A DNA stretch of 63,204 bases, filler included, from Reclinomonas americana ATCC 50394 (taxonomy: Eukaryota): NCBI GenBank assembly GCA_048213135.1. It is 5 parts of 2 records of this genome, joined end to end, with 100 filler letters (N's around TTAATTAATTAA, not from the genome) between each part and the next. Parts side by side here need not be neighbours in the genome. Positions count along the whole stretch, not along the records: positions 18,728 to 36,904 come from PS015747.1; 4 more parts are not named here. One strand, 5' to 3'. The notes beneath the pieces were generated by a model. That model was not told where the DNA came from. It did no database searches and saw only the letters and a list, made by a program, of their open reading frames with translations. Of the stretch, positions 18,538 to 54,435 are shown one piece after another (the stretch's first letter is position 1; the number at the start of each line of letters is the position of its first letter). The position numbers and the translations under genes were made by a program.

Positions 18538-18671
18538 TTTTCACACTCATGTCTAAAATCACAGCACACATCACCAGCTTGCATGGCTTGTGCGCAAGGC
18601 GCGCATGGCCGAGTGCCAACAGCCAAGNNNNNNNNNNNNNNNNNNNNNNNNNNNNNNNNNNNNNNNNNNNN

Positions 18672-18683
18672 TTAATTAATTAA
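18672..18683. other. artificial six-frame-stop contig linker
   Basis: TTAATTAATTAA between two 44-N runs (100 nt in total). Confidence 0.95.
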
Positions 18684-18730
18684 NNNNNNNNNNNNNNNNN
18701 NNNNNNNNNNNNNNNNNNNNNNNNNNNCTC

Positions 18731-18818
<88 letters not shown>

Positions 18819-18845
18819 CTCGTCGTCGTCGTCTCTCGTCTCGTC

Positions 18846-18923
<78 letters not shown>

Positions 18924-18954
18924 GTTGTCGATTTATGCTCACGCTGTCTCACAG

Positions 18955-21900
18955 ATCCTCGCAACTAACGATTGTTACTGCTGGATTGGTCGCCACACTT
19001 TCAGGTCTGGTGTCGGTCGTGGTGAACAAAATACAACAAAAGTGGCATACTGACTGGCCCAACCTCTTGCAGTAACCATTTCGGTCAATGACGGCAACGG
19101 CGGCTCTCTCTCCAAGACTTTTACGATCCTCCGTTGCGTTCATCCCCCCTCGTGATTTTGGGATCCCCTTCTGATATTGCTTTACGCCTTCCTGCAGCCC
19201 TCACAACTCCTGCAAAGCCCACGCTGTCGCCCTCCACCTACACGCCTCCACTGGCTCTCAACGGCGTCATTGGCGCGTTATCGGCCACAGATCCGAACCC
19301 ATTGCAAACGCTGACGTTCACGATCATTGGCGGCGTCGATCAGGCATCGTTTGCCGTCTCTGGAAGCAACCTTGTGTCGGCAATTGCAGGCCTCACTGGC
19401 AACGGACTGCAAGTCACTGTGCGTGTCGCCAACACACTCGGAGCGAGCAATACTAATACGTTCTCCATCAGCGAGAGTTGCGCCATTGTTTCCCTCTCAC
19501 GGAAGTCTGCCCCGTCGTACTCAACAGGTTTTCTGCACAGCAAACGTGACGCCGTCTGCGCCGGCCCTCTCTACGTCCACCTACATACCGCCGCTCGCGT
19601 TGAACAGCGTGATCGGGACGCTATCTTCGACAGACCCCAACACGGGCCAGACTCTGACATACACCATCATCGGCGGCACGAATCAGGCCTTGTTCAACAT
19701 CAGTGGCACGAGTCTGCGCTCCAATGTGGCTGCATTGACAGGCAATTTGTTGCAAGTAACTGTGCAAGTGAGTGACGGCGCCGGAGGAACGAAAAGCACC
19801 ACGTTTTCCATTAGCGAAGGTGCATTGTGCCGCGAGTCATTTGCCTCATTTTTTACTTCTCACCTACTTTCTTTTGCTTGTGGCAGCCAATGTGTTGCCC
19901 ACGGCGCCGATACTCTCCTCGTTGACATACACACCACCGCTGGCCCTCAATGGAGTGATCGGCACCCTGTCGTCGACGGATCCGAACACTGGCCAGTCGT
20001 TGACGTACACCATTACGGGCGGCGCGAATCAGGCCTCCTTCAACATCAGTGGCACAAGCTTGCGCTCCAATGTGGCAGGACTGAGTGGTAATGGACTTCA
20101 AGTAACCGTGCAAGTGAGTGATGGAGCAGGAGGCACGGCAAGCACAACGTTTAGCATAAGCGAAGGTGAGAGAGAGTCTTGTTCTTGTGGGTTCCATGAG
20201 TTTCTCACTCTTGCTTCTTCCTCCTGCCAGCCAATGTGCTGCCCACCGCACCGACTCTCTCCGCGTCCACCTACATACCACCGCTCGCGATGAATGGCGT
20301 GATTGGCGCGTTGTCATCCACAGATCCAAACACTGGTCAGACGCTTGCCTTCACTATTACCGGCGGCACGAGCCAGGCTTCGTTCAATATCAGCGGCACG
20401 AGCTTGCGCTCAAATGTGGCTGGCCTGACTGGTAATGGACTGCAAGTAATCGTGCAAGTGAGCGATGGAGCTGGTGGAACAGCCAGCACGACATTTACAC
20501 TCAACGAAGGTGAGTTGTTGTTGAAGTCAGCGAAAATTGCTTTGCGTCGAGTTTCTCATTGTATGTATTGTGGACAGCTAATGTGCTGCCGACTGCACCA
20601 ACACTCTCTTCGTTGACGTACCCACCGCCGCTAGCACTGAACGGGGTGATCGGCACGCTGGCGTCAACAGATGTCAACACGGGGCAGACGCTCACCTTCA
20701 CTATTACTGGCGGCACGAATCAAGCTTCGTTCAACATCAGCGGCACGAATTTGCGTTCGAGCGTGGCAGGACTGACGGGTAATGCATTGCAAGTGACTGT
20801 GCAAGTGAGCGACGGCGCTGGCGGAACGAACAGTACCACATATTCAATAAGCGAAGGTGTGTCGCTGTTCGCGTGACTGTGTCTTCGTGTTATTTGGTCT
20901 CATTGATTGCTCTCTGACAGGCAATGTGCTGCCGACGGCACCGACTCTGTCTTCCTCGACGTACATTCCACCTTTGGCTATGAATGGCATCATCGGCGTA
21001 TTGTCGTCGACCGATGCCAATACGGGCCAGACGCTGACCTACACAATCACCGGTGGCACAAGTCAGGCCTCGTTCAATATCAGCGGTACGAGTTTGCGCT
21101 CCAGTGTGTCAGGACTGACCGGAAATCTGCTGCAAGTGACGGTGCAAGTGAGCGATGGCGCTGGAGGAACGGCGAGCACGACGTTCTTGATCAGCGAAGG
21201 TGACCTAATCAATGTTCTCCCTATCTCTCTTCACGCTCTCGTTTCCATTGGCTGACGCTGCTCGCGTTGCTTCACAGCCAATGTGCTGCCCACTGCGCCG
21301 ACGCTCTCTTCATCCACCTACGTGCCGCCGCTGGCGCTGAATGGCGTGATCGGCACGCTCTCTTCCACAGATCCAAACACTGGCCAGACTCTGACATACA
21401 CCATCATCGGCGGCACGAATCAGGCCTTGTTCAACATCATTGGCACGAATCTTTTCTCGAATGTTGCTGGACTGATGGGCAATGGGCTGCAAGTGACAGT
21501 GCAAGTAAGCGATGGCGCAGGAGGAACGAATAGTACCACATTTACAATCAGCGAAGGTGCGTCGCGGTTCGAAGTCAAGTTTCCCATTCTTGCATCTCAC
21601 CCATTTTCCGTGTTGGCAGCCAATGTGCTACCCACCGCACCGACACTCTCCTCGTTGACGTATGCGCCACCGCTGGCCCTCAATGGAGTGATCGGCACGC
21701 TGGCGTCGACAGATGCAAACACCGGGCAGACGCTGACGTACACCATCACCGGCGGCACGAATCAGGCCTCCTTCAACATCAGCGGCACCAGCTTGCGTTC
21801 GAATGTGGCTGGCCTCACCGGAAACAATCTACAAGTGACTGTGCAAGTGAGTGATGGAGCAGGTGGCACGGCAAACACGACATTCACCGTTAGCGAAGGT

Positions 21901-24900
21901 GAGTGGGAGTCTTGTACTCTTGAGCTGTGTGTTTGATGAGTTACTTACTCACTCCTGCTTCTTCATCCCGCCAGCCAATGTGGTACCCACTGCGCCGACT
22001 CTCTCCACGTCCACCTACATACCGCCGCTGGCACTGAACGGCGTGATTGGCACGCTCTCTTCGACAGACCCCAACACGGGCCAGACTCTGACATACACCA
22101 TCATCGGCGGCACGAGTCAGACCTCGTTCACCATCAGTGGCACGAGCCTTCTCTCGAATGTTGCTGGCCTGACGAGCAATGGGTTGCAGGTGACTTTACA
22201 AGTGAGCGACGGCGCCGGAGGAACAGCCAGCACGACGTTTACTCTCAACGAAGGTGAGAAGTCCTTGTGTAGTTGCCATAGACCTTGTCGTTCTGTTAAC
22301 ATTCTGCTCTCTTGTCTCACCAGCAAACGTGATACCAACTGCGCCTACGCTCTCCACGTCTGCCTACATTCCACCGCTGGCCTTGAACGGAGTGATTGCC
22401 ACTTTGTCATCGGTGGATCCGAATACTGGCCAGATGCTCACATTCACCATTACTGGCGGCACAAACCAGGCCTCATTCAACATTAGTGGCACGAGCTTGC
22501 GCTCCAATGTTGCGGGCTTGACTGGCAACGGGCTGCAAGTGACCGTACAAGTGAACGATGGAGCTGGCGGAACGAACAGCAGTACATTCTCAATCAGCGA
22601 AGGTTTGAAATGCGTCAGCCTGTGCATGACTTCCATGTTTCTCACTCTTCTCTTTGCACTCGCAGCCAACGTAACGCCTACCGCTCCAACTCTGTCATCC
22701 ATGACGTACACGCCGCCGCTTGTGATGAATGGCGTGATTGGCACGCTGTCTTCGACGGATCCCAACACTGGACAAACCCTGCTGTTCACCATTGTCGGCG
22801 GCACCGATGCGTCGTCATTCAACATCAGCGGCTCGAGCTTGCGGTCGAATGTGGCTGCGCTGACCGGAAACGGACTGCAAATCACCGTGCAAGTGAGCGA
22901 CGGTGCCGGCGGCGTGGCGAGCAGCATATTCACCATCAGCGAAGGTGCGTATGTGTGTAACTGTCGTCCTTCTTTGGCGCAAACTCACACTTCTTGCAGC
23001 CAACGTCGTGCCCACTGCGCCGATCCTTTCCTCGAACATCTACACGCCACCATTGGCTCTGAATGGTGTCATTGGCACGCTGTCGTCTGTGGACCCGAAC
23101 ACTGGACAGACGCTGACTTTTGCAATCACGGGCGGCACGAATCAGGCCTCATTCAACATCAGTGGCGCCAGTCTGCGGTCGAATGTGGCTGGTCTCACTG
23201 GTAGCGGACTGCAAGTGACTGTGCGCGTGAGCGACGGAGCCGGTGGAGTGGCCAATGCCACGTTCACAATCAGCGAATGTGAGAGACTTCTATCGTCAAC
23301 AGCATCTTGTGGCTGGATGACTCATGCATTCTATCGTGCAGCAAACGTCAACCCTAGTGCGCCAACTCTGTCCTCCACCTTGTACGTGCCGCCGCTTGCC
23401 CTCAACGGCACGATTGGCACTCTCGTGTCGACCGACGCCAACACGGGTCAGACCCTGACGTTCACCATCACTGGCGGTACACACTCGACGCGCTTCAACA
23501 TCAGCGGCACGACGCTGCGCTCCAACGTGGCCGGCCTCACCGGCAACAGCTTGCAGGTGGTGGTGCTGGTGAGCGATGGAGCAGGTGGATCGGCCAGCAG
23601 CACGTTTTCGATTTCTGAGAGTTGCGTGCATCACGTAAACGCTGTCGCGTACCCACCGTGTGACTGACAAGAGTGAGCAGGCAACGTGATACCGTCGGTG
23701 CCGACGTTGTCGACCAGCTTGTACACTCCACCGCTCGCTGTGAACGGCATCATTGGAGCGCTGTCATCGAGCGATCCCAACACTGGTCAGACGCTTGTGT
23801 TCTCGATTGCGGGTGGCGCGGATCAGGCGTCCTTTGTCATCATCGGCTCGAATCTGTGCTCGAATGTGGCGGGGTTGACCGGCAATGGTCTGCAGGTGTC
23901 GGTGAGCGTCAGCGACGGCGCAGGTGGAGTCGCCAGTTCCATGTTCAGCATCAGTGAGGGTGAGTCTCTTGACGGACTGTTGCTCGAGCACGTCGTTGCG
24001 CTCATCTCTGGTGTGTGTTTGTGTGCAGTGAACGTGCTGCCGACGGCTCCTGTTCTGTCGAACAACCTGTTTGTGCCGCCGCTGCCACTGAATGGCGTGA
24101 TTGGCGCGCTATCGTCTGTCGACCCAAACACGGGACAGATGCTGGTGTTCAGCATCACCGGCGGCACCAATGCAGCTCTGTTCAACATCAGCGGCTCGTC
24201 GCTACGGAGCAATGTGGTGGGCCTGACGGGCTACAATCTGCAAGTGACGGTGCAAGTGAGTGATGGGGCGGGCGGCACGGCGAGTGCAATGTTCTCCATC
24301 AGCGAAGGTACGTTATTCAGAATGCGGTGATTGGATTGTGCACGACTCTCAACATGATTTCCATCTGCACAGCAAATGTGGCTCCGAGCAGCATCACACT
24401 GTCGTCGTTGCTATACGATCCAACGCAACTGCCTCTCGCTCTGGTCGGCACACTCAGCTGTGCCGACGTGAACACGGGGCAGACGTGCTCCTTCACTGTG
24501 CTCCCCACTGGCGACGGTCCTCTGTTTCGAGTGACGAACGGCAATCAGCTGTTTATCAGCAGCGCTACCGAGACGACCACACCACTCAGCGTCAGCATCC
24601 AGGCAACAGACAGTGGTACGCCACCGCTTTCGTTCACGCAGCTGTTTACCATCAATGCTGGTGAGTTCGCAGATGACATCATGTTTCTTCTATTTCCTAA
24701 AATACTCACTTGCTGTTTCTGCTCACCGCAGCCAATCTCCCGCCTACCGGTCTCACGCTCTCTCCGACTGACTATCGTCCGCCGCTGGCCCTGAACTCTG
24801 TGGTTGGCACGCTGTCGGCCACGGATGCCAACTGTTGCCAGACGCTGACGTACCGGCTGGTGGGCGGCGCTGATCAGGCCAAGTTTGCGATTGTGGGCAA

Positions 24901-27900
24901 TCAGCTGCGCAGCAACGTGGCTGGCGGACTCACGGGCACCGGGTTGCAAGTGAGTGTGGAGGTGGCGGACGGCGCTGGAGGGACGCAGGTCAGGTCGTTT
25001 GTGGTTGACGAAGGTGCGAGGCGGAGAAGGGGAGGATAGGGCAAAGGGGGAAGAGGGACAGAGTAAGAGAGAGAGGGGGGGGGAGGGAAAGAGGAGAGGG
25101 GGTGAAATCGTGAAATTACTCTCGTGGTTTAAGCTGCAGAGTTTATGAGAGAGAGAGAGACTGAGATTAACAAACAAAGGCAGTTTGAGAGAGAAAAAAG
25201 AATGAGACATCGAATGAGACAGCGAGGGAAGGAGAGACCGGGAGACAGAGAGAGAGAAAGAGAGGCATAGACGTATACAATGTAATGGAGACGACAGAAT
25301 GAACCGAGAGAGATAATAGAATTAGACATTGCATGAGACAGCGAGGAGGGAGAGCAAACTGAATGAACCAGAGTGAGAGAGAGAACGGAATGAGACTTTG
25401 AATGAGACAGCAAAGAAAAAGAAGACAGAGAGGAGGGGAGAGAGATACAAATAGACGTTATACCGTGTGTGAGAGAAATAAGATTAACACGAGAGAGAGA
25501 GAGAGAGAGAGAGAAAGAGATGATAGAGCGAGACATTGCATGGGTCAGAGAATGAGAGAAACAGTGGTGTTGTACCTCGTGAGAGAGCAAAGTGAATAAA
25601 CCAGAGAGAGTAACAACAGAATGAGACATTGCACGAGGCAGCAAGGGAAGGAGAGACTGAGAGGAGTGAGAGACAGATAGACGCGCACAGCGTGTGAGAG
25701 AAAAGAAACGAAACCGAGAGAGAAACTGAGGAAGACATTGAATGAGACAGCGAGGAAAGGAAGACAGAGAGAGAGACAGAGATAGGGAGCGAGAGAGAGA
25801 TGACAGAATGAGACATTGAATGAGACAAAGAGGGAAGGAGAGACAGAGACGAGGGATATTATTGCTGCCCCTTTCCATTGCTCTCTCGTTTAATTCTTCC
25901 CTCTCTAACCATTCTCTTGCCGCTTGCAACGCAGTGAATATCCCCTCCACTCGCATCGTGCTCTCTGCCGCGACATACTCCCCGCCAACGGCGGCCGCCA
26001 ATCAACTCATCGGCTCGCTGTCCACTGTGGATCTCAACTGCTGTCAAGTGTTTTCGTACACGATTTCCGGTGGCGCAGACGCTGCGCTCTTCGACATTAT
26101 CAACGGCAACCAGTTGGTGCTGCGCCTTGCCGGTCAGCGTGGAAGCAACTTGTCGGTCACCATTCAGTCGACCGATAATGCCATGCCTGCGCTTTCCATG
26201 CAACAATCGTTCAGCGTCAACGAGGGTGAGCTGTCTGGTTGTGGAACTTCGCATTTGATGTACGCTTATTCACCATCTTCGCATGCAGTCAATGTGCCAC
26301 CAACTGACATTACACTGTCGTCGAACACATATGCACCGCCGACTGCGATGACTGGCGTCATTGTCGGCACGCTTTCGACGGTGGACGGCAACAGCAACGA
26401 GTCGTTCACGTACTCGGTTGTTGGCGGTGCTGCGTCTTTGTACTTTTCCATTGTCAACGACAATCAGCTGGCTCTCCTGCCGGTGGGACTGGTGGGCAAT
26501 GGATTCCGTGTGATTGTTCGCACAGCGGATCGATTTGGCGTCACGTTTGACAAGATGTTCACCGTGAATGATGGTGCGGAAGGAGGGGAAGGGAGAAGAG
26601 GAGAGAGGGAGAGGGAGAGGGGAGAGGGGAGAGGGAGTGAGAGAGTGAGGAATGGGCCAACGGATGAAGCTGCAACCTGTGGCTTCAGTCTTGTAATCTG
26701 ATTATATCCTCATTCTTCCTTTCNNNNNNNNNNNNNNNNNNNNNNNNNNNNNNNNNNNNNNNNNNNNNNNNNNNNNNNNNNNNNTCTTGTTCACCCTTGT
26801 TGATGTGGATTTCGGTGGGTGTTTTCAGTTGTACTGTCATTCATTTCTCTCTCTCTCTCTCATGCGTCTGGCGTTCGAGCGTTGTTTGGTTGTATCGTGC
26901 TGTACATTTCCTGTTTTATTACTTGATGGTGTTCCTGCTCGTTGATGTGATGTTGGTGGGCGTATGTATTGTATAATTGTCTCCCATTTTCGCTCCCTTC
27001 CCTCCCTGGCCTTCTTCTCCCTTCCATGGCCACCTCTGTCAGACATTGAGCTTTCGTACGTTCCCTGTTGTTTCCTGCTGCTCACTCTTTCTCATCGAAT
27101 GTGCGTTGTATTCACTTTTGTCCTCCCCCTCGTACAGCCAATGTTCCGCCGACCGACATGGCGCTGTCGACCAATGTCTACACGCCCAACTGGCCCCTTT
27201 CCAACTTGGTTGTCGGTGTGCTGTCAGTGACCGACGCCAACATTGCCGACACGTACACCTTCAGTGTCACCGGCGGCGCTGATGCTGCGAGCTTCACGGT
27301 CAATGGCTCCTCACTGGTCACTCGCGTGGCTCGCGTCACCGGGAACAGGCTTGTTGTTGAAGTTACTGGCACGTGTGCGGCCAGCGGCGATGTGATTACG
27401 CGGACATTCACCCTGGATGAGAGTTTCGTGACTCGACGAGCCAACGCTCATTCAGTAACATGCTCTGCTCACCACTCTCTCTCTCTCTCTCTCTCTCTGT
27501 GCTCCCCAACACAGGGAACGTTTTCCCCACCGCGGTGCAACTTAGCAATACGTCGTATGTGCCACCCGGCACGACTGCCAACGTGGTTGTCGGCGCTCTG
27601 ACGGCTGTGGACGACAATTGCTGCCAGACATTTACGTTTGCTGTTGTCGGCGGCATCGATGCTATGCGGTTCTACGTTGGCTCAGATTCGATGCTGTATC
27701 TGCGCTACGACACGTCGATTGTGTCGCGACTGCAAGTGCAGCTTCAAGTGAGCGATGGACTTGGTGGACAATGTGTCAGCTCGTTCACCATATCGGAAGG
27801 TGCGTTCGAGAGAAGGGCGACGGCACGTCAGAGATGGAGGAAGAGGAAGAAGAGACGATCCTTTGTTTTCGGCCGCACTCTCACGCTAATTTTCTCCTTC

Positions 27901-30900
27901 CTTCACAGCCAATGTGCAACCGACGGACATTTTGCTCTCATCATCGACGTACGTGCCGCGGAGTGCCGTCGGCAACATGATCATCGGCACGCTCTCGACG
28001 GTGGACGCCAATGTCGGGCAGGATCATGTGTATGCGGTGGTCGGCGGTGCGGCACAGGCTCAGTTTACCGTGACCAATTCCAACAAGCTGCTCCTCGTGC
28101 CGGCCAACGTCACCGGCAATGGACTTGAGGTGGTGGTGCGCACCACGGATGCTGCTGGTCTTGTGTTTGACAAGACGCTCCTGATCAACGAAGGTGCGTC
28201 TGAATGAGCTGAGGTGGTACCACACTGTTCGCTGATTATGTGGTTGCATGCAGTCAACGTGCCTCCGTCGAACATCCGGCTGCTTCCCAACGCAACCTAT
28301 ACGCCCCCGACAGTGGCACCTAACACGGTTATCGGTACACTGGCCACGGACGACGACAACACCAACGACTCATTCACGTACACGCTGCTGGGTGGACCCT
28401 CTGCTTCCCTCTTCCGGATCATCAATGGCTCGACATTGGCGCTGCGCAGTGCGCAACAACGCGGCGCCCGGTTCACTGTCACAGTGCGCTCGACGGACTC
28501 GGGAGGGGCGTTCCTGGACAAAGTCCTGATTATCACCGATGGTGTGTGGTTTGACATTCACGTGCTTTTGTGTTTGTGGATGTGTGCTTTGCTGATCGTT
28601 ATCAATCTGGACAGTGCCTGTCGCGCCGACGGACATTCTACTGTCGAATGCCGTGTACACGCCGCCTGTTGCCGTGGTGAACACGCTGGTTGGCATCTTG
28701 TCGGCAGTGGACGGCAACACCGAGGACACGTTCACGTATGAGATTGTGCCGGGAATGGATGCGGTGAGTGTGGGGGACGGAAGAAGTAGAAGCGACGATA
28801 AGAACTTTTGAAGGAGGAAGAGTAGTTGATCAAGTGACAAGGGTGAGAGAGCAAGACAACAGACATTGTGCGACAGATTGGATGTGGGGGAGAAGAAGGA
28901 GGAAGGGAGGGCGACGATAGAGAGTCGAACTGGCTGCAAGAACTCTAGAAGGAGGACGAGTAGTCGATCAAGTGACAAGGGCGAGAGAGCAAGACAACAT
29001 AAACTGTGTGAGACAATGAAAATGGGGGAAGAAGAAGGAGGAAGGGAGTGCGACGATTAAGAGCCGAGCTGGCCGCAGTAGTACTCGGGACAAGGGTTAG
29101 AAATAGAGAGCAAGACTACGGACGTATTGCAAGAGAATTGATTTTCTATGTGTTAAGGGAGATGAAGGAAGCAGTAGTGCTACAAACAGGAAGTGTTAGA
29201 GTGAGGAAAGAGAGCACGGGAAGTGCAATAGAGGCGGCAGGGAGAGTGACTGACGGGTTGGCGTTGTATGAGAAGTGAGACAGTATCGGTGTGTTCCACT
29301 CATATCTCTGTTTCTTCCGTAGTCGCACTTTGACGTTACCGACGACCAGCTGGTGATGACGCAAGTTGGTGACACGGGGACGCTGCGAGTGAGGATCACG
29401 GTCACGGATTCAACAGAAAACACGTTCACGAAGCTCTTTGTGATCGACGAGGGTGCGTTAAAGGAATCCCGACTCGCCAGTTCATCATACATCATGCTCA
29501 ATCCTGCACAGCGCATTTGATGCCCACGGCACTGACGATGAATCGCACTACTTTCCCACTGGGTCTTGCACTCGGCGGCACCATTGCAACCCTGCACACC
29601 GCCCATCCGAATTGCTGTGTCAGCCTGGTATATTCGATTGTTGGAGGCGCGGATGCGGTTCGTGTTTTCCATGCATATTCTTCTTCGTTGGTCTTTTTGG
29701 ATCTCACTCCATATGTGTGTTTGCAGGCCAAGTTCCGCATCCAAGGTGACAAGCTGGTGTCAGATGTGTCTCCACTCATTGGCGCGAACCTGGAGGTGGC
29801 AGTACAGACCGACGACCAGCAGGGTGGCGTGCTGCAGAAGACGTTTTTGATTTCCGAAGGTGATTTTGCATCTGCCACTGTGTGCGCTTCTTCGTAACTC
29901 ATGGCACTCACCGGACATGTGGATGCTTTCGTTTTACAGAGGCCGTCGCACCCAGTGCACTTTCCCTCTCGGCCACCACTTACGTGCCACGCACGCTGAT
30001 ACTTAACTATGTTGTCGGCACGCTGACGACCACCGATGCCAACTGCTGCGATTCGTTCACGTATTCGATTCGGGGAGGCGGTCAGGCGACCCTGTTCAAC
30101 ATTGCTGGCAACAAGCTGCGCTTCACAAAGGAGAACATTGGCGGTCAGCTGCTGGAGGTGACGGTGCGCACGACGGATTCGGGCGGCTTGTGGTTGGAGA
30201 AGACATTTTCCATCATGGAGGGTGAGTGCAAAACAACGAATGCTTGTCGATGCCGCTCATCAATGCCTGTCATGACAGCAAATGCGGTGCCGGTGGGCGT
30301 GGCGATTGAACCGCTGCTGTTCAAGGGGCCGGCGTCGCGGAATGGGCTGGTGGGGCGTCTTCGTGCGCTGGATGCCAATTGTTGTCAGTCGCACACGTTT
30401 ACGTTGGTTGGCGGCGCTGCTCAGGTTCTTCATTGTCCACTTGTTGACGTGTGCTTGTCTATTTGTGGAGGTGAAGAGATCGCTGACCTTTGGCATGCGC
30501 ACCGCAGGACAAATTCTACATTGCTACCACGGAGCTGAGGGTGAATGTGGATCGGTTGTCGGGCAGTGGGATGGAGGTAGTAATTCTGGTGGATGACGGG
30601 CAGGGTGGTCGGGTGAACAGCACGCTGGTGATTGGAGAAGGTGAGGAGAGGGAGAAGAAGAGGGAGGGGAAAGGAGAGGGAATAGGAGAGGGGGAGGAGA
30701 GGGAGGGAGAGGAGAGGGAGGGAGAAGAGGGTAGGAAGAGGAGATGGAAGAGGGAGAGAGAGGATGGGAAAAGAGAGGGAGGGAGGGGGAAGGGGGAAAG
30801 GGAAAGGAAGAGGAGAGGGAAAGGAAGAGGAGAGGGAGGGAAAGGGATGAAAGAGGGAGGGAGAGGAGAGGGAGGGCAAGGAGAGGGGAGAGGAGAGGGT

Positions 30901-33195
30901 GGGAATTGGAGAGGGAGAGAGAACAAAGGGAGGGCATTGGAGAGGGAGAGGAGGCAAAATGCATGAGAATTGTGGAGGGGAAAGACGAGGTGAGAGTGAG
31001 CGATCGGCGATGCAGGTGCTGACGCTCGTGTCAAAGTAGGATGAGTGTGTGAGAGAGAGGAAGAGATGAGAACAACAAAGTACGCAGCAGAAAGAAGCTT
31101 GTCTGTTGATTATCGCGGAAAGGAAAAGCCTGTTAATATGTATCCGCTGTCTGTGTTAGGTTTAGAGTGATAGGTTACCTGTTCCCCCTTGCGATGGAGA
31201 TTGTGCTGATGTGCCTGGACGTGACACTCACCGCGCCACTCACAGAGCCACCGCCGCCTCCGCCTCCTCCGTCCGTCTCCCTCGCCCCTGGCGTGGCAAC
31301 AAGTATTCCCTCCGGCACCACAACGCTGGCCACCAGTGTGGTGTATGCCAACTCGGGCAACTCGGTCAACTGGCTTTCTTCTGCCGTGATGACAACGAAA
31401 GTCAATGTGGAGCTGTGGGTGCTTGTGAATGGTGCGTGTTGCTCGCAACTTGACTCAAAGAGCTGGATAACTTCTCAACCTTTCGCGTCACAGGTACTTT
31501 TGTAAAGGAAACCGAGTTGGTCAGTGGAGTGGACAGCACATTGTCGACGGCGGAACTGGATGCGTCGCTGAAGACGGTGAAGGGTCTGGTGTCGTCGAGT
31601 GCCACGTTTAGGGTGGTGGTGACGGAGGCGTCGACGAATGGCACGGTGGTGGGGTTGACGGATCCGTTTATACTGAAATGTGAGGGTCAAGGGGAAGGAG
31701 GAGGGGAAGGGGGAAGAGGAATAGAAAGGGAGTGGAGAAAGAGGCAGGAACTTGTGGAGGAGAAAGTGGGGTAACACGAGAAAAGGGAGAGAAAGTGCAG
31801 AATTGTAGGGGCATTCAGATCAGGAGAGAGAAGAGTGAGGACGGGGGAGATGAGAGACAGACATGAAGTAAGAGAGTGAGAAAGGAATTTAATGACGGAG
31901 GAGAGAGAGATATGAGAGGACGAAGAGGCAGAGCACAGAGAGACAGATAGGAAACAGAAGAGTGAGAAAGGAGTCTAGTGGCAGTGGCGAGAGAGAAATG
32001 AGAGGACGATGAGAGACAGAGACACAGAGAGAGACAGAAAGTAAGAGTGAGAAAGGAGTTTAATGGCAGGAGAGAGAGAGAGAGAGATGAGAGGACGATG
32101 AGAGACAAAGACACAGAGAGAGACAGAAAGTAAGAGAGAGAAAGGAGTATAGTGGCAGACGAGTGAGAGGCGTGTGGGAGAATTGATCAGCAAAAGCACA
32201 GAAAGAGAATCGGAGAATGAGAGAGAGCTTAAACAGGGTCTCGAAAGCTGAGATATAGAGTGTCATCATAGATGTATGTGCGAGGACTAAAGGGGAGGAA
32301 AGATGAAGACAGAGAAAGAGACATGCCAGCGGATTCGTACGCAGAACAAGAAACGGAGAGTTGACTGAGGATGGAGCGAGATTGTGAGGAACGTGAGTGG
32401 AGCCGGCGAGCAAGAGTAGCATAGTTGCTTGATGGAAGAGAAAGGCATCGAGCAATTGACTGCACACTCACTCCGTTGCAGATCCGAGCATTGCAAGTCG
32501 TGCATCGGCCACTCAGACGGAACCAGCGTCAATCATTGAGCCGCTGTTTGTCACGTGGATTTGCGACGGTCCGCCCAAGGCCACCAACTTTACCATAAGT
32601 GTGAGTCTTGCATGACCGTCTGATTGAGAAGCGTCAGTCAGCACTTACACAAGCTGCAGTTGCAACAACGGCCCAGCTCTGGCGGCTCGCTCGTGTCACG
32701 TGGGCGTGTGGCGACGCACGTGCTCGGCGCGTGCACTGCCGGTGCCAGCTCCACGGTCTCGACATCGCGTGATGCGATCAGCGGCACAGCCGCCGAGCTG
32801 GCACGTGCACTGAACGGCACCAACACGGCTGCGCTGACGCTGGCCACGAGTGCCAGCGGGCTGAGACTGCAGAGTGGTACCGATTATGTGTTCGAGGTGA
32901 CACCAGAGGTCGACGATGTGTCGTTGTATGACATCTCGCCGACGGCGGCATTCCGAGTGTTTGGTGAGTGGTGGAAGGGGGGCAGGGGGTGGTGGAGAAG
33001 ATTGATGATGAGAGTGGAGATGTCTTTGATGACAGATGGATGTCAGCAGATTTGGTGATTTGGGAGAGAGAGGCTAGTGATAGAAATGATGATTGTGATG
33101 AATGAGGGGCGCATGTGGCTGCGACAGGGAGGCAGATGGTGGTGTGTAGATGAGATAATATGAGAGTGAGATCGTGACTGGAGAGGGGGAGTGCT

Positions 33196-33230
<35 letters not shown>

Positions 33231-35149
33231 GAGAAACTGAGTTGGAGAAATAGAGTTTGTGAGCAATGGTACTCTGCGTGATTGAGTGTGTGAGTGAGTG
33301 AGAGAATGTGTTAGTGTGTTACTGAGTGAGCGAGTGAGGAGAACCTGTGAGTGTTGGTGAAAGTGCAAGACCCTGAGTAGTGCTGCAGTTGTCTGAGTGC
33401 TAATGTTATGGCATTCGAATCATGCTTGCACGTGACCTGTCATATTCATCTCAAGACCTGCTTTTGTATCAGCGACTCCAACTCACCTTGGTTGCGCTGC
33501 AGATCCGACCTCCGTGTTCTCGACTTCCACGTGCCCATCCTCCATCCGATGCTGGTACTGGATTGCGCTGATGGCGGCGGGTGGCACTCTGCTGTGCATG
33601 ATCACCACCTGCTGCTTCATGTTTGCCTGCTACCGCCGTCGGCAACGGCGTCGTGTCGGGGGCGCGAAACTCGGTCCGGGCGCCAGCTGGCTGCTGGATC
33701 GTGATGCGACTTTTGTGCAGTTTGTCGTGTCGCCAAGTCTGTGGTGTGCACGACGCACTGGTCGAAAGGCGGATGCAAAGGCAATCACCACACTGACGAT
33801 GATTGATTTGCCGGGGACACGTTGCGTGCGACGTCTTGTTACGCAGCTATCCAAGTGTGTCCACTCACCTGCGACGTCCACAGCCATCAACGCAACCACT
33901 GCGCCACTTCCTCGTTGCGTCTCATTGTAAGCGCCTCTGCTTTCTGCCTCTCTGAGTGCTCCATCAAGTGAACATTTCTTCGCGATGATCTCTTTCTCTC
34001 TCTCTCTCTCTCTCTTTTGTTTCTGTCGCCTTGTCTCTTTCTCTCTTCGTTTCTGTCGCATTTTCTCTGTCTTTCTCTCTCCCTCTCTCGCAGTCTCTCT
34101 CTCTCTCTCTTGCTCTTAGTCTCTCGCCGTCTGTCTTTCTCGCTGTCTCGTCCTCTGCCGCTCTCTCTCTCTCACACTCACTTAGTTATCTCTCTCTCTC
34201 TCTTCTTGCACTTGATTGTCTCAATTGCTACTCCTTGTCCTTTGCTGCAGCGCTCTCACCGTCGGCCGCTTCCCCAATATCGCCGCCGACAAAGACTCCC
34301 ACCATCCACTTATTTAGCCCTGTTCCACCACCACCGTTACCGCCACAACTGCCTTCACCGTCGTCCTCACCGTCGGCGAGCGCTGTGTCGTCGGACAGCG
34401 TGTACGTGCACATTGATGCGCCACGACAGCCCGTATTGCGACTGCCGAACCTGCCGACGCTGTCGCAGTTTACGATGCTCACTGGCATTCGATTGCCGCC
34501 GCCACCGAGGCGGCCGCCAGTGGCATTGACCATACCTGGTCTGGTGCCGCAGTTGCCCTTTGCTTTCACACACAACCGCAGCTACGTGACGCCGCCGCCA
34601 CCGCCGTCTCCGCCGCCGCCGCTGGTGGCGGCTTCAACCGAGAGTGAGCCGCGTGAGTTGCGAAGACCGGTGGCTGTAGATGCTGCTGGTGCATTGGAGA
34701 TGCCGCAACTGCCGTCGCCGCCGCAGCGCACGTCGCTGCAGTTGCCGCCACTGCCGGTAAGTGCACCAGTGTTGAAAGGAGAGGGGATGGATACGAAAAC
34801 GTGAGAAAGGAAGCCGATAGTGCGCACCAGCTTTTTGCTACACCAGACCTCTCCGCCTTTCTTGGGAGGCCGGTTGTTATTCACTTGCACGTATCACTAA
34901 GCGATTGTCTTTGTGTGATAGGTGGAGTCGCTGGCGTTGCCAAGGAGGATCCGGTCGCCGTCGGCCATGGGCGCAAAGTCCATGTCGCTGCAGCAGCAAC
35001 TGCAATTGCCGGTGTCGACTGTTGCTGTGACGCGCTTGCTGCATCCAGTCGACGGACGATTGCCTCGGATGAGTGAGCTGAGCTCGATGTTGTCGCTGTC
35101 GTTGCTGCCGCCGCCGCCACCGCCGCCGCCGCCGCCACCGGCAGTTTAG
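18955..35149 (+). CDS. giant single-pass membrane protein with >=27 cadherin-like repeats, TM helix and Pro-rich cytoplasmic tail (5' end lost at gap)
   Basis: Repeat consensus ANVLPTAPTLSSSTYIPPLALNGVIGTLSSTDPNTGQTLTYTITGGTNQASFNISGTSLRSNVAGLTGNGLQVTVQVSDGAGGTASTTFSISE; repeat 16 has the cadherin-typical ATDSGTPPLS. TM WYWIALMAAGGTLLCMITTCCFMFACY (~33553-33633) followed by RRRQRRR. Pro-rich exons at 34250-34756 and 34922-35149. The 3' end may extend to ~36330. Confidence 0.85.
19198..24307 (+). repeat. 15 tandem exon+intron units (279-nt exon, ~55-80-nt intron)
   Basis: Exons such as 19198-19476 and 19541-19819 are each 279 nt with phase-1 boundaries; period roughly 335-355 bp. Confidence 0.92.
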
Positions 35150-35920
35150 TGTGGGAGGGGATGGAAGAGAAAGGAGAAGGGGATAATGAGAGAGAGAGAG
35201 AGGAAGGAGAGGAAGGAGAGGGAGAGAGAAGAAAGGGAGTGGGTAAGTGGAAGAGAAGGGAAAGCAAGAAAGATAGAGAAAGAGAAAGAAAGAAAGCAAG
35301 CAAGCAAGAAAGAAAGAAAGACAGAAAGAAGAAGAAGAAGAAGAAGNNNNNNNNNNNNNNNNNNNNNNNNNNNNNNNNNNNNNNNNNNNNNNNNNNNNNN
35401 NNNNNNNNNNNNNNNNNNNNNNNNNNNNNNNNNNNNNNNNNNNNNNNNNNNNNNNNNNNNNNNNNNNNNNNNNNNNNNNNNNNNNNNNNNNNNNNNNNNN
35501 NNNNNNNNNNNNNNNNNNNNNNNNNNNNNNNNNNNNNNNNNNNNNNNNNNNNNNNNNNNNNNNNNNNNNNNNNNNNNNNNNNNNNNNNNNNNNNNNNNNN
35601 NNNNNNNNNNNNNNNNNNNNNNNNNNNNNNNNNNNNNNNNNNNNNNNNNNNNNNNNNNNNNNNNNNNNNNNNNNNNNNNNNNNNNNNNNNNNNNNNNNNN
35701 NNNNNNNNNNNNNNNNNNNNNNNNNNNNNNNNNNNNNNNNNNNNNNNNNNNNNNNNNNNTGAAAGAATGAAAGAATGAAAGAAAAAGAATGAAAGAATGA
35801 ATGAAAGAAAGAAAGAAAGAGAGAGATAGGTAGAAGAAAGAGGGAGAGAGAAAAAGAGAGGTAGAAATTGAGAGCGGGGATGGACAGAGAAAGAGACAGA
35901 CAGAGAAACAAAACAGAGAG

Positions 35921-35982
<62 letters not shown>

Positions 35983-36522
35983 AAGACAGATGGCGAGAGA
36001 GACAGAGATTGAGAGGGGGAGAGAGGTTGAGTTATTACCACCCGTCTAACTCCTGCTGCACAGATCCCGCTTCCGCTGTCTCGTGGAGGAGACACAACGA
36101 GAACGCTGGGAGCTCGGCGACCGAGTTTATCGTTGCAAATGGCGGTGCCTTTACCGCAAGCACGGGTGCGTTTGTGAGTGCGTTTATGTGGTGGGTTTTG
36201 TGGGCGACAATTGCTGAGTGTGTGTGGGCGTAGTTGCAGAGGTCGAGATTGGCGTCGTCGAGTGGGGTTCGGGCGGGCGATGGAGCGCGGCAAGTGGGTG
36301 GGCGGGGGGAGGTTGCGGAGTTTAGTGGATGAGAGTAAAAGGGAAGTGAATTGGTGTGGCCTCTTAAACCTCAATTGAATTGTCTCCTAAAAAGATCATG
36401 CTTCCCGGCGACAGTTGGCTATCGGTGCGTGTATACCTCATCAGAGGAATGTTATGAGGTGCAGGGTTGTGACTCATGTTGAGTGTTATATTGTTGTTTG
36501 TTTTGCTTCATGTGTGCGTGTA

Positions 36523-42529: not shown

Positions 42530-42573
42530 NNNNNNNNNNNNNNNNNNNNNNNNNNNNNNNNNNNNNNNNNNNN

Positions 42574-42585
42574 TTAATTAATTAA
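42574..42585. other. artificial six-frame-stop contig linker
   Basis: TTAATTAATTAA flanked by 44-N runs. Confidence 0.95.
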
Positions 42586-42683
42586 NNNNNNNNNNNNNNN
42601 NNNNNNNNNNNNNNNNNNNNNNNNNNNNNCGGTGGTGGTGGAGGCGCAGAAGACATGTTATTGTGAACAAGACAGGACAAGGT

Positions 42684-45442: not shown

Positions 45443-49615
<4,173 letters not shown>

Positions 49616-53673: not shown

Positions 53674-53883
53674 GTGAGCGAAACGTGGAAGGATTGGATT
53701 GATTAAGAGGATGTTGAGGGCTCTCTTCTCTTGTGTCCATGCGTGTTTGTCACTTTCCCTTTGTCTATCCGTCTTCCTCTTTGTCTCCTGCTCGGTCTTC
53801 CCCCGTTCTCTTCCTATTATCTCTCCGTTCCCCTCCCCCNNNNNNNNNNNNNNNNNNNNNNNNNNNNNNNNNNNNNNNNNNNN

Positions 53884-53895
53884 TTAATTAATTAA
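53884..53895. other. artificial six-frame-stop contig linker
   Basis: TTAATTAATTAA flanked by 44-N runs. Confidence 0.95.
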
Positions 53896-54435
53896 NNNNN
53901 NNNNNNNNNNNNNNNNNNNNNNNNNNNNNNNNNNNNNNNACGGTTGTGCGAGAAGTGGGAGAAGGGGGAGAGGAGGAGAGAGGAGGGGGAAGGGAGTCGG
54001 GTGTGCAGTCTTGCAGTGGAGAGAGACGCTGGGTCGGCAGCTGCAACTGGATGATGGAGCTTGTCTCCTCAGGATTGTGGAGAGACGTGTCTGCAGGGAG
54101 TCACCATTCACGTTGCCGCCGCGCAACGTAGCTGTGCTGACGAAGGTGCCGGGTTGAGCTCTTCTTTCTCGAGAGGTGAGAAAATTGGTGGGTGGGAGGA
54201 GATGTGGATTGCCAATGGCACATCGTGGCGAATGCAAGTGAGCGGTCGACGAATGCAGTATCCTGCGTTCGACGCCACACAGGAAGAGGTACATCATTTG
54301 GAGCTTTGTTTTAGAACGGACTGATGGACAGACAAGCTCTCGAAGTCGGGGAGTGAAGCACAGACGGGAAGCTTCGCAGCTCAGCTATTATTCCGCACAT
54401 GCAGAGCTCTGCTGTTATGAGGGAAGACGGATAAT

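Follow-up and report, generated by a model that had tools for sequence, protein, structure and literature searches.

A 5'-truncated gene for a very long repeat protein

The window, by which we mean the whole stretch of Reclinomonas americana DNA that was analysed (63,204 nucleotides, filler included), contains a real gene of an intron-rich protist, truncated at its 5' end and encoding a very long single-pass membrane protein with at least 28 cadherin-fold repeats. The features of the locus are as follows.

18628-18727: linker Ns, adjoining the contig start
From 18728: CT microsatellite, opening the contig piece directly before the partial repeat
18955-19004 and 19073-19132, + strand: two exons of a partial repeat (C-terminal half), translation SSQLTIVTAGLVATLSVTISVNDGNGGSLSKTFTIL, repeat positions 69-92
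19198..25013, + strand: r01-r17, one exon per repeat, 15 of 279 nt, then 288 and 282 nt; phase-1 introns of 55-78 nt
25014..25934, + strand: long purine-rich intron, 921 nt, A+G 73%
25935..26573, + strand: r18-r19 (jackhmmer pieces, spliced model)
26574..27137, + strand: long intron, 564 nt, containing the N run 26724-26784
27138..28541, + strand: r20-r23, one exon per repeat of 285-288 nt (jackhmmer pieces, spliced model)
28615..30640, + strand: r24-r27 (jackhmmer pieces, spliced model), as in the next four lines
28615-28763 and 29323-29452, + strand: r24, split by a mid-domain intron
29512-29657 and 29727-29859, + strand: r25, split by a mid-domain intron
29940-30221, + strand: r26, single exon
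30279-30424 and 30508-30640, + strand: r27, split by a mid-domain intron
31246-31431, + strand: non-repeat exon A, beginning with eight Pro, frame open
31494-31679, + strand: non-repeat exon B, frame open
32482-32600, + strand: non-repeat exon C, frame open
32660-32963, + strand: non-repeat exon D, frame open
33503..33930, + strand: transmembrane exon, acceptor at 33503, frame open to TAA 33928-33930 unless spliced out earlier
33553..33633, + strand: transmembrane helix WYWIALMAAGGTLLCMITTCCFMFACY, by Kyte-Doolittle hydropathy
33634..33654, + strand: basic stop-transfer RRRQRRR, directly after the helix
34251..34756, + strand: putative tail exon 1, 168 aa, Pro-rich, with a strong acceptor at 34251 and a GTAAGT donor at 34757
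34394-34414, + strand: DSVYVHI, within putative tail exon 1
34922..35149, + strand: putative last exon, 75 aa, ending in eleven Pro then AV; stop TAG 35147-35149

A jackhmmer search with one repeat against six-frame stop-to-stop segments of the whole window returned 31 domain pieces, all on the plus strand between 19060 and 30642, and none outside that interval. The pieces sort into 24 single-exon repeats, three intron-split repeats and one C-terminal half-repeat; 15 of the single-exon repeats are exactly 279 nt long (93 codons) and the remainder 282-291 nt. With a unit of ~93 aa, 27 complete repeats and one partial repeat lie between 18955 and 30640, and in the spliced model hmmsearch found the 27 as contiguous domains without spacers. 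This is the count that the original prediction had given, and the consensus pattern proposed there agrees with our repeat alignment. Twenty-seven is a lower bound for the complete repeats, as the 5' end of the gene is missing and a run of Ns inside one long intron (26724-26784) may conceal an exon. Upstream the gene is cut off by the contig start, where the microsatellite and linker Ns precede it, and its signal peptide is missing.

Successive repeat-bearing exons lie in different frames and join only when GT-AG introns of 55-109 nt are excised. In the predicted gene model, 34 GT-AG exons (19198-32963) were joined into 2795 aa with no stop codon. The inter-repeat junctions were phase 1 in 26 cases out of 26, and of the 34 introns 28 measured 55-109 nt and six 539-921 nt; the canonical intron borders are partly by construction, because GT/GC-AG was required in the modelling. 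The extra intron of r24, r25 and r27 is in phase 0 and occupies an identical place within the domain.

For the 15 repeats of 279 nt the median dS was 1.35 and dN 0.19, giving a dN/dS of 0.13; the introns among them were only ~50-60% alike, and DNA identity between repeats was 65-84%. By these values the repeats diverged long ago and have been kept by purifying selection. That the array might not be a functional eukaryotic gene at all, being instead bacterial contamination, a decaying pseudogene or a collapsed-repeat assembly artefact, could be argued from the bacterial origin of the highest-scoring full-length database matches and from the gaps and arbitrary linkers in the scaffold, but this is hardly credible and, to the extent that sequence allows, already refuted, given the 2795 open codons obtained by removing short GT-AG introns between repeats in different frames, the dN/dS of ~0.13, and a DNA identity at which collapse or mis-joining of near-identical copies is no issue.

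The non-repeat exons A-D (31246..32963) together encode 266 aa, in which neither a recognisable family nor a look-alike was found; exon D, the only one of the four that was folded, gave a pLDDT of 34.9 on its own, a value too low to inform on the beta-rich character originally described. Further downstream, WYWIALMAAGGTLLCMITTCCFMFACY provides the single 19-residue window with a Kyte-Doolittle value above 1.6 in the 2937-aa model and is followed at once by RRRQRRR, in keeping with the single helix and basic stop-transfer originally described. By the positive-inside rule, this basic stretch points to a cytoplasmic C-terminus. The repeat array would then lie outside the cell, at its surface, and the ectodomain contains 33 N-x-S/T sequons.

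Predicted fold of the repeat

AF2 run on the 24-repeat alignment gave a model with a pLDDT of 94.8 and a pTM of 0.85. Compared with 48,161 chains by VIA-align, this model found no non-cadherin fold among its best 50 entries, all 50 of which were ECs of the cadherin superfamily (Z 9.8-11.7; rmsd 2.0-2.8 Å over 85-95 residues, covering residues 1-95). The best structural matches were cadherin-23, protocadherin-15, CELSR and FAT-like proteins (Z 11.0-11.4, rmsd 2.1-2.5 Å). A Foldseek search with the single repeat pointed the same way, with cadherins making up 38 of the 41 matches listed, as did a profile search of PDB sequences, in which 12 of 12 matches at E<=1 belonged to the cadherin superfamily (best 0.0019). 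These results support a cadherin EC-type Greek-key beta-sandwich as the predicted fold, and the earlier suggestion of cadherin-fold repeats is borne out. As in other tandem arrays of this superfamily, 27 domains lie back to back on the N-terminal, presumably extracellular, side of the transmembrane helix.

Pfam was searched with single repeats as well. Big_9 (PF17963) was seen in 10 of 24 repeats at E<=0.01, in each case below its cut-off (e.g. 21.4 bits), and Cadherin (PF00028) in 0 of 24 at the same threshold; PF00028 had no match at E<=1 in five repeat-bearing ORFs either, and a two-repeat ORF reached the Big_9 gathering score (29.4 vs a cut-off of 23.6 bits). Since Big_9 is the only Pfam family over its cut-off and the only one seen for single repeats, these could be taken for generic bacterial-type Ig-like domains (Big_9 or He_PIG) and not cadherin-type, but we consider this very improbable: the best 50 entries of the Foldseek-independent search were all cadherin ECs over residues 1-95, every PDB profile match was a cadherin, and the best-matching bacterial repeats are themselves PF00028.

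Relatives of the repeat and its calcium-ligand positions

The repeat profile matched 16,050 proteins at E<=1e-3. PF00028 was carried by all seven matches in one search and by 116 of the 120 matches listed in another, and the protein language-model neighbours were PF00028 clusters (0.95-0.96). The best-scoring full-length database matches were bacterial, and repeats of the bacterial protein P0125, which scored 65-69 bits with the repeat profile, match PF00028 at 145 bits. The PF00028 link of the window repeats is transitive, because it is made through such bacterial repeats. Giant bacterial cadherin-domain proteins (PF00028/Big_9/Cadherin_4), such as P0125, P0009 (Silvanigrellaceae MAG) and P0055 (Chitinophaga), resemble the window protein in their long tandem arrays of ~95-aa units, at 65-69 bits per domain, and their domains share with the window repeats D32, D79, F52, L59 and the N-x-x-P-T start. 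The genes differ in that the bacterial ones have no introns and use bacterial anchors, e.g. T9SS or RTX.

The closest relatives are unannotated repeats of two euglenid proteins, Euglena longa EP00668_P002443 (P0139) and A0A7S4CZF8 (P0068, Eutreptiella cluster), at up to 92 bits per domain and 46-55% identity. The UniRef name of the latter is merely 'SbsA Ig-like domain-containing protein', and its repeats begin directly after a signal-peptide-like N-terminus. The 27 window and 14 euglenid repeats split from the database domains with a support of 99 both in FastTree (150 database rows) and in IQ-TREE (45 sampled database rows). These trees took in window, euglenid and database domains and left out animal, choanoflagellate, Thecamonas and Pythium ECs, so the proposal that the repeats are closer to bacterial adhesins than to animal ECs is a statement about bit scores (68.8 bits for the best bacterial domain vs about 20 bits for cadherin-23). 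On these scores it stands, with the refinement that the nearest relatives are eukaryotic. The proposal of a lineage-specific receptor has to be narrowed: the repeat type is shared with euglenids, but the amplification of r01-r15 looks gene-specific.

The euglenid repeats have P17, N34 and V3, are mostly without E66 and, like the window repeats, receive no cadherin call from Pfam. We define the type here as the euglenid-type cadherin-like repeat, a subfamily so far unnamed, by Y15-x-P17-P18, D32-x-N34, V3 and no acidic residue at 66, together with a grouping apart from bacterial-type domains, a pattern that the window repeats show. Unlike the window gene, the euglenid proteins carry no more than 8-9 repeats, after which come a Big_5 domain, Cys residues that by eye resemble the C-type-lectin pattern, and a C-terminus rich in Cys; a transmembrane helix with a Pro-rich end is not visible in them. 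They share a domain with the window gene and are not orthologues.

At position 17, 25/27 window and 12/14 euglenid repeats have P, where 133/150 database domains have E; at position 34, all window (27/27) and euglenid (14/14) repeats have N, where 124/150 database domains have D; at position 66, E occurs in 1/27 window and 4/14 euglenid repeats and in 125/150 database domains. Three acidic positions kept in ~85% of database domains are thus missing from the window and euglenid subtype. D32 is kept in 26/27 and D79 in 25/27 window repeats, and the linker reads E-G-A-N-V-x-P, not D-x-N-D-N-x-P. Bacterial domains, unlike the window repeats, keep E17, D34, E66 and an acidic position 3, which we take to be the XEX, DXD, DRE and DXNDN Ca2+ ligands; the motifs were mapped onto these positions from the CDH23 alignment of the PDB profile search and from cadherin structures. 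On our overall reading, the subtype probably descends from, or is sister to, a bacterial PF00028-type cadherin domain, and has replaced the acidic residues which build two of the three inter-domain Ca2+ sites in canonical cadherins.

The long animal cadherins were the sole PDB sequence matches, and their similarity to the window repeats is weak (about 20 bits, 12-25% identity). Like the predicted window protein, they are single-pass membrane proteins with very many contiguous ECs, of which cadherin-23 has 27; they differ in having LDRE and DxNDN, both missing from the window repeats. In PCDH15, some of the linkers hold fewer than three Ca2+, or no Ca2+ at all. Classical cadherins differ in their cytoplasmic domain: in a Pfam scan, neither the ORF after the transmembrane helix nor the tail ORF matched a cadherin cytoplasmic (catenin-binding) family, and the tail ORF matched no family of any kind. 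Proteins of choanoflagellates (MBCDH1/2 and others), Capsaspora, Thecamonas trahens and Pythium/Phytophthora are likewise protist surface proteins with many ECs and no catenin-binding domain. Outside animals, cadherins are reported from a few oomycetes, Thecamonas, filastereans and choanoflagellates (PMC4265756, PMC2926784), with 2-17 EC domains per gene in Pythium (PMC2926784). As defined in PMC2926784, a 'true' cadherin keeps LDRE and DxND, and the non-animal 'true' cadherins do so; by this definition the window repeats fall outside LDRE/DxND(N) cadherins, because the three acidic positions are replaced in nearly every repeat. A limited literature search found no treatment of cadherins in euglenids or diplonemids.

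The predicted tail and the proposed function

The Pro-rich ORF of the original prediction (34251-34756, 34922-35149) and its DSVYVHI are present. Its low-complexity sequence contains LPPPP, PPLP and PxxPxR twice each, a run of 11 Pro, and SVYVHI. It is plausible that the two Pro-rich ORFs are a pair of 3' exons of the gene, joined to the transmembrane exon by a putative splice, and the cytoplasmic tail probably continues into them. Alternatively, the in-frame TAA at 33928 would terminate the protein first, leaving the ectodomain and helix as described with a 96-aa tail that is not Pro-rich; in that case the ORFs at 34251-35149 would belong to the 3' UTR, form an alternative pair of terminal exons or be GC-rich sequence without coding function, and SH3/EVH1/SH2-type coupling would fall away. 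The frame of the transmembrane exon is indeed open for 141 codons, right up to 33927, and a strong phase-1 donor 3' of the helix was not found (candidates at 33700, 33736, 33820, 33856 and 33913; best score 1.0 vs a training median of 10.3 and minimum of -1.3), but GTTGCG, in phase 1 at 33820 and 33913, serves as donor three times elsewhere in the gene. Likewise, several frames are open in the GC-rich CCG-repeat sequence, whose codon scores are only modestly frame-specific (minus strand 0.60 vs 0.68 for the proposed frame in one test), but in each tail exon the proposed frame outscores the other two, the spacer and the GTAAGT/AG-bordered segment between the two ORFs score negative in all frames, and the acceptor at 34251 (11.3 vs a training median of 11.2) equals the confirmed acceptors of the gene in strength. 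Termination at this TAA is a possibility to be taken seriously, though the less probable outcome.

Our overall reading, in which we have somewhat more belief than doubt, is of a 5'-truncated nuclear gene for a giant type-I single-pass surface glycoprotein, a cadherin-fold rod with a cytoplasmic tail. The ectodomain would consist of 28 or more cadherin-fold domains in uninterrupted succession, encoded by one exon per domain with phase-1 introns and followed by two non-repeat stretches (266 aa), one transmembrane helix with a poly-Arg stop-transfer, and the tail. The analysis bears out the gene model as far as the transmembrane exon, the fold, the family relations, the altered Ca-ligand positions and the purifying selection; placement at the cell surface, the length of the rod, its binding partner, any Ca2+ dependence and the coupling of the tail are proposals that go beyond it. 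Such a chain may stand out from the cell as a glycosylated rod, with a reach of the order of 100 nm, and contact other surfaces, whether substrate, prey or other cells; its 15 near-identical distal repeats could offer a face for multivalent binding or self-association. Poly-Pro and YxxPhi-type motifs might allow the tail to pass contact on to cortical actin or the endocytic machinery. The coupling to SH3, WW, EVH1 or SH2 partners originally suggested would depend on these short motifs in a low-complexity tail, and SVYVHI would fit a YxxPhi sorting signal equally well. A role in adhesion or prey recognition may be compared with that of choanoflagellate cadherins on the feeding collar, for which prey capture is proposed in PMC4265756.

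The protein could instead have a purely structural, passive part in the cell coat, as a spacer in the glycocalyx or in a surface layer of the pellicle or flagellum; lattice packing between the repeats would then account for their conservation, and the tail would serve only as an anchor. Purifying selection over the whole repeat, with the DNA diverged to saturation, is what one would expect if most of the domain surface is constrained, and the contiguous repeats without linkers, the many glycosylation sequons and the finding of no catalytic or signalling domain in the Pfam scan are in line with such a role. A role beyond anchoring is suggested, however, by the poly-Pro and YxxPhi motifs, provided that they belong to the protein, and ligand binding is suggested by the euglenid relatives, which pair the same repeats with a Cys pattern that by eye looks C-type-lectin-like. 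We regard a coat protein as less likely than not, and a contact receptor as the preferred reading.

Cadherins are central to arguments on the origin of animal cell adhesion, and domain libraries miss the cadherin-fold domain both of this giant protein and of the euglenid 'SbsA Ig-like' proteins. As Pfam misses the subtype, PF00028-based surveys may undercount eukaryotic cadherin-fold proteins. The subtype also amounts to a natural experiment, with three acidic Ca-ligand positions replaced in nearly every repeat and a dN/dS of ~0.13 long after duplication; the idea of a cadherin chain that depends little or not at all on Ca2+ is thereby open to direct test. Taken to its furthest, and as a whole decidedly doubtful, the argument would describe a Pfam-invisible, non-holozoan eukaryotic cadherin-fold lineage in euglenids and this protist, of bacterial-type origin (possibly by ancient transfer), in which Ca2+ sites 1 and 2 were lost and the site 3 residues kept (N2, D32, N34, D79), and in which phase-1 exon duplication built a ~28-domain rod acting as a prey or contact receptor wired to actin through its poly-Pro tail. 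If true, the long-cadherin receptor design would have been invented independently outside animals.

Repeat array and gene model

The piece carrying the gene (18728–36904) begins in a CT microsatellite; the window as a whole is eukaryotic scaffold sequence in which N runs are frequent. The same linker, N44-TTAATTAATTAA-N44, with stops in all six frames, occurs four times, at 18628–18727, 36905–37004, 42530–42629 and 53840–53939; since contig pieces are joined end to end in the window, genes flanking a linker are not necessarily genomic neighbours. A jackhmmer search with one repeat against six-frame, stop-to-stop segments of the whole window found 31 repeat pieces, only on the + strand (19060–30642). 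The 27 complete repeats of ~93 aa (r01–r27) and the partial one at the gap, as counted in the original prediction, were recovered as 24 single-exon repeats, three repeats broken by a mid-domain intron and one half-repeat. Fifteen of the single-exon repeats are exactly 279 nt long and the remainder 282–291 nt.

18955–19132, + strand: C-terminal half-repeat, immediately after the contig start

This partial repeat has an intron of its own (19005–19072), at yet another domain position than those described below.

Neighbouring repeats lie in differing frames and are connected by the removal of short introns, which recur at the same codon with donors such as AAG/GTGAGT and GTGCGT and acceptors CAG/CC; all 26 inter-repeat junctions are in phase 1. 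Joining 34 exons (19198–32963) gave 2795 codons with zero stops, and hmmsearch detected 27 contiguous domains in the spliced product. Because GT/GC-AG borders were imposed during intron modelling, the canonical borders are partly a product of construction; the open frame over 34 junctions was not imposed. An additional phase-0 intron occupies the identical domain position, after GGxxA/Q, in r24, r25 and r27, and intron gain or loss inside the array could date duplications. Intron lengths are bimodal (34 introns: 28 of 55–109 nt and six of 539–921 nt), and five of the six long introns are purine-rich on the coding strand (A+G 64–79%), this being due in part to tandem units of 43 and 72 nt.

28764–29322, 29658–29726 and 30425–30507, + strand: extra phase-0 introns at a common domain point, in repeats distal in the array
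25014–25934, 28764–29322, 30641–31245, 31680–32481 and 32964–33502, + strand: five of the six long introns

We have not met an earlier description of a member with at least 28 repeats and a transmembrane (TM) anchor encoded as one exon per domain.

Repeats r01–r15 share 70–86% protein identity and only 65–84% DNA identity, and their flanking introns are ~50–60% alike, which is near background for global alignment. Nei-Gojobori comparison of 105 pairs among the 279-nt repeats gave a mean pS of 0.63 and a mean pN of 0.17, with a median dS of 1.35 (seven pairs saturated), a median dN of 0.19 and a median dN/dS of 0.13. These values exclude a recently amplified array, a collapsed assembly and a pseudogene: purifying selection has maintained each repeat copy.

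The window holds other genes. Positions 37100–40000 (+ strand) contain another modular surface-protein gene with at least five IPT/TIG-like repeats of ~85 aa in separate ORFs and shifting frames (pattern ...TITGxGL...D.V.LV.G..C.G...Y.L....G.......V.....S....G.Y.VW; Pfam TIG E=1.3e-3, below cut-off), apparently again with a separate exon for each repeat. Scanning the whole window with Rfam and for tRNAs gave no hits.

56314–56589, + strand: serine carboxypeptidase S10 exon (Pfam 1.3e-29)
46570–47391, + strand: ankyrin-repeat ORF (Ank_2 9.8e-16)
60945–61673, – strand: weak MFS-like ORF

The carboxypeptidase exon has a best identity of 69%, and its named matches are choanoflagellates and diplonemids: Salpingoeca infusionum (64%), Sulcionema specki (63%), Barroeca monosierra (60%), Artemidia motanka (59%) and S. 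rosetta (57%). This mixed set does not place the source organism; the repeat subtype points towards euglenids. The single search with this exon yielded no identical protein, so the gene may lack annotation in that collection.

Fold and relatives of the repeats

Pfam assigned a two-repeat ORF to Big_9 (29.4 bits; cut-off 23.6), with Cadherin_CELSR2_9th and Cadherin_5 sub-threshold. At E<=0.01, Big_9 matched 10 of 24 single repeats and the cadherin family PF00028 none of them. With a 24-repeat profile, all 12 PDB sequences found at E<=1 belonged to the cadherin superfamily, the best being cadherin-23 (E=0.0019, ~20 bits). The AlphaFold2 model of the repeat alignment (pLDDT 94.8, pTM 0.85) was used for structural comparison: 38 of the 41 Foldseek matches listed were cadherins, the others being SraP, a CelAly B1 domain and intimin, and in a second, Foldseek-independent search of 48,161 chains all 50 listed matches were cadherin EC domains, spanning residues 1–95 (Z 9.8–11.7, rmsd 2.0–2.8 Å). 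The repeat fold is cadherin-type, as originally proposed from the sequence, and the first condition named as refuting that proposal, a non-cadherin fold, is decided in its favour.

An exhaustive search with the repeat profile matched 16,050 proteins at E<=1e-3, of which 1,747 also passed E<=1e-30; giant multi-repeat proteins ranked highest. Twenty matches were checked by name: five were bacterial (Silvanigrellaceae, Chitinophagales, Chitinophaga twice, Magnetococcus), two carried bacterial-type labels only ('gliding motility-associated-like' and 'Ca2+-binding RTX toxin-like protein'), two were euglenid, and the remainder were nameless or 'hypothetical protein'. PF00028 was carried by 7/7 matches in one word-indexed search and by 116 of the 120 listed in another; no eukaryotic transcriptome source occurred among those 120. 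The language-model neighbours of a divergent repeat were likewise PF00028 clusters (0.95–0.96).

It had been suggested that the repeats are closer in style to bacterial cadherin-like adhesins than to animal EC domains. By bit score, this comparison stands: repeats of P0125, a bacterial protein in which Pfam finds Cadherin at 145 bits, score 65–69 bits with the window repeat profile against ~20 for cadherin-23. The bacterial proteins are not the closest, as the best per-domain matches are euglenid, namely P0139 of Euglena longa and P0068, at 92 bits and 46–55% identity. The P0068 cluster includes Eutreptiella proteins, with 'SbsA Ig-like domain-containing protein' as their sole name. Pfam did not recognise the repeats of either protein and found only Big_5 elsewhere in each. 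Beyond 8–9 cadherin-like repeats, these relatives carry, in residues ~720–900 and the C-termini among other parts, a Big_5 domain, VNDAP-type repeats, a conserved Cys-rich C-terminus and, by eye, a C-type-lectin-like Cys pattern.

In trees, the branch uniting the 27 window repeats with 14 euglenid repeats had a support of 99 both in FastTree, with 150 database domains, and in an IQ-TREE quick run with a sample of 45 of them. Repeats r01–r15 formed a window-only group (support 93), and the proximal repeats were intermixed with euglenid ones; finer forks are unreliable because the alignment has only 99 columns. Searches of the JGI metagenomes with the TM exon (213 pattern matches, none confirmed) and with one repeat (nine loci, identity only 33–43%) gave no close locus.

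Putative calcium-ligand positions

Ligand positions were mapped through the cadherin-23 profile alignment and known cadherin structures.

Residues at profile positions in the window repeats, the euglenid repeats and the 150 database domains
Position 17: window P 25/27; euglenid P 12/14; database E 133/150
Position 34: window N 27/27; euglenid N 14/14; database D 124/150
Position 66: window E 1/27; euglenid E 4/14; database E 125/150
Position 3: window V 22/27; euglenid V 11/14; database E or D 78/150
Position 32: window D 26/27; euglenid D 14/14; database D 150/150
Position 79: window D 25/27; euglenid D 14/14; database D 150/150
Position 2: window N 23/27; euglenid N 13/14; database N 119/150

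We take positions 17, 66 and 3 to be the acidic ligands of the XEX, DRE and DXNDN motifs that build Ca2+ sites 1 and 2; N2, D32, N34 and D79 are presumably the ligands of site 3. On this mapping, each linker would bind at most one Ca2+, and possibly none. 'True' cadherins are defined in the Pythium genome paper (PMC2926784) by LDRE and DxND; under that definition, the window repeats are cadherin-like rather than true cadherins.

The P17/N34 counts of P0081 (7223 aa) fit a close relative, yet its domains are bacterial-style Big_9/VCBS and score 20–30 bits each, and it was rejected. The ectodomain has 19 Cys, including six vicinal pairs directly after the invariant D-x-N (D-A-N-C-C-Q) in r17, r18, r21, r25, r26 and r27, in the loop equivalent to the cadherin DXD Ca-binding loop.

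24731–25018, 25937–26227, 27517–27804 and 29945–30223, + strand: examples of Cys-Cys repeats

Membrane anchor, tail and proposed function

After r27, the frame continues through four non-repeat exons into the TM exon.

31246–31431 (A), 31494–31679 (B), 32482–32600 (C) and 32660–32963 (D), + strand: non-repeat exons, frame kept
33503, + strand: start of the TM exon, the next exon after D

Exons A–D encode 266 aa, with eight prolines at the start. This segment had no phmmer match among 409 collected proteins, no hit with the repeat profile (hmmsearch) and no internal duplication (half against half only E=13, blastp). The exon B and D ORFs matched no Pfam family, and exon D had no usable match or look-alike in the Atlas; AlphaFold2 gave exon D, folded singly, a pLDDT of 34.9, too low to bear on the beta-rich character first proposed for these exons. 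The model's only hydrophobic segment (33553–33633) is followed by RRRQRRR, which bears out the single TM helix with a basic stop-transfer first proposed and predicts a type-I topology. The ectodomain carries 33 N-x-S/T sequons.

The frame of the TM exon is open up to a TAA at 33928, so that the protein could end in a short tail of 96 aa. The acceptor of the downstream Pro-rich ORF (34251) is strong, scoring 11.3 against a median of 11.2 with a matrix for which splice sites of this gene served as training set. It requires a phase-1 donor, and the five candidates in the TM exon (33700, 33736, 33820, 33856 and 33913) all score <=1.0 (training median 10.3, minimum –1.3); two of the five read GTTGCG, which serves as donor at three other junctions of the gene. 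In codon-usage scores, the proposed frame was the best in both tail exons (34251–34756 and 34922–35149), and the CT-rich spacer and the 165-nt inter-exon segment (GTAAGT...AG) were negative in every frame. These scores separate exons well from purine-rich introns; they are composition-sensitive, the minus strand scoring nearly as high in one test, and so do not settle the tail. On balance, we consider it somewhat more likely than not that a splice joins the Pro-rich tail to the TM exon; the short tail is the less likely alternative. If joined, the tail is 25% proline and contains two LPPPP, two PPLP and two PxxPxR motifs, an 11-Pro run and SVYVHI. The latter may be an ITIM-like pattern and could equally be a YxxΦ sorting signal; such short, low-complexity motifs are weak evidence.

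Cadherin-fold repeats, bacterial cadherin-like adhesins and non-animal cadherins are already known. We know of no earlier description of a subtype in eukaryotes that this gene shares with euglenids, that escapes domain libraries and in which three Ca-ligand positions are systematically replaced; the listings and abstracts retrieved on cadherin with Euglena/euglenid or diplonemid/Euglenozoa included no paper on this topic.

The encoded cadherin-fold chain is very long, glycosylation-rich and under selection, and a membrane anchor comes after it. A cadherin domain measures ~4.5 nm, so that 28 of them would span roughly 100 nm outward from the cell. With Ca sites 1 and 2 lost, the stiffness of the chain would depend little on Ca2+, and the 15 near-identical distal repeats may form a face that is multivalent or packs against itself. 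If the tail is present, it could connect the protein with regulators of actin or with endocytosis. A serious alternative is that such a chain is a passive protein of the coat or a spacer. A prey-capture role has been proposed for choanoflagellate cadherins (PMC4265756). For the Reclinomonas americana protein, we favour a contact or adhesion receptor, which may engage substrate, prey or other cells.
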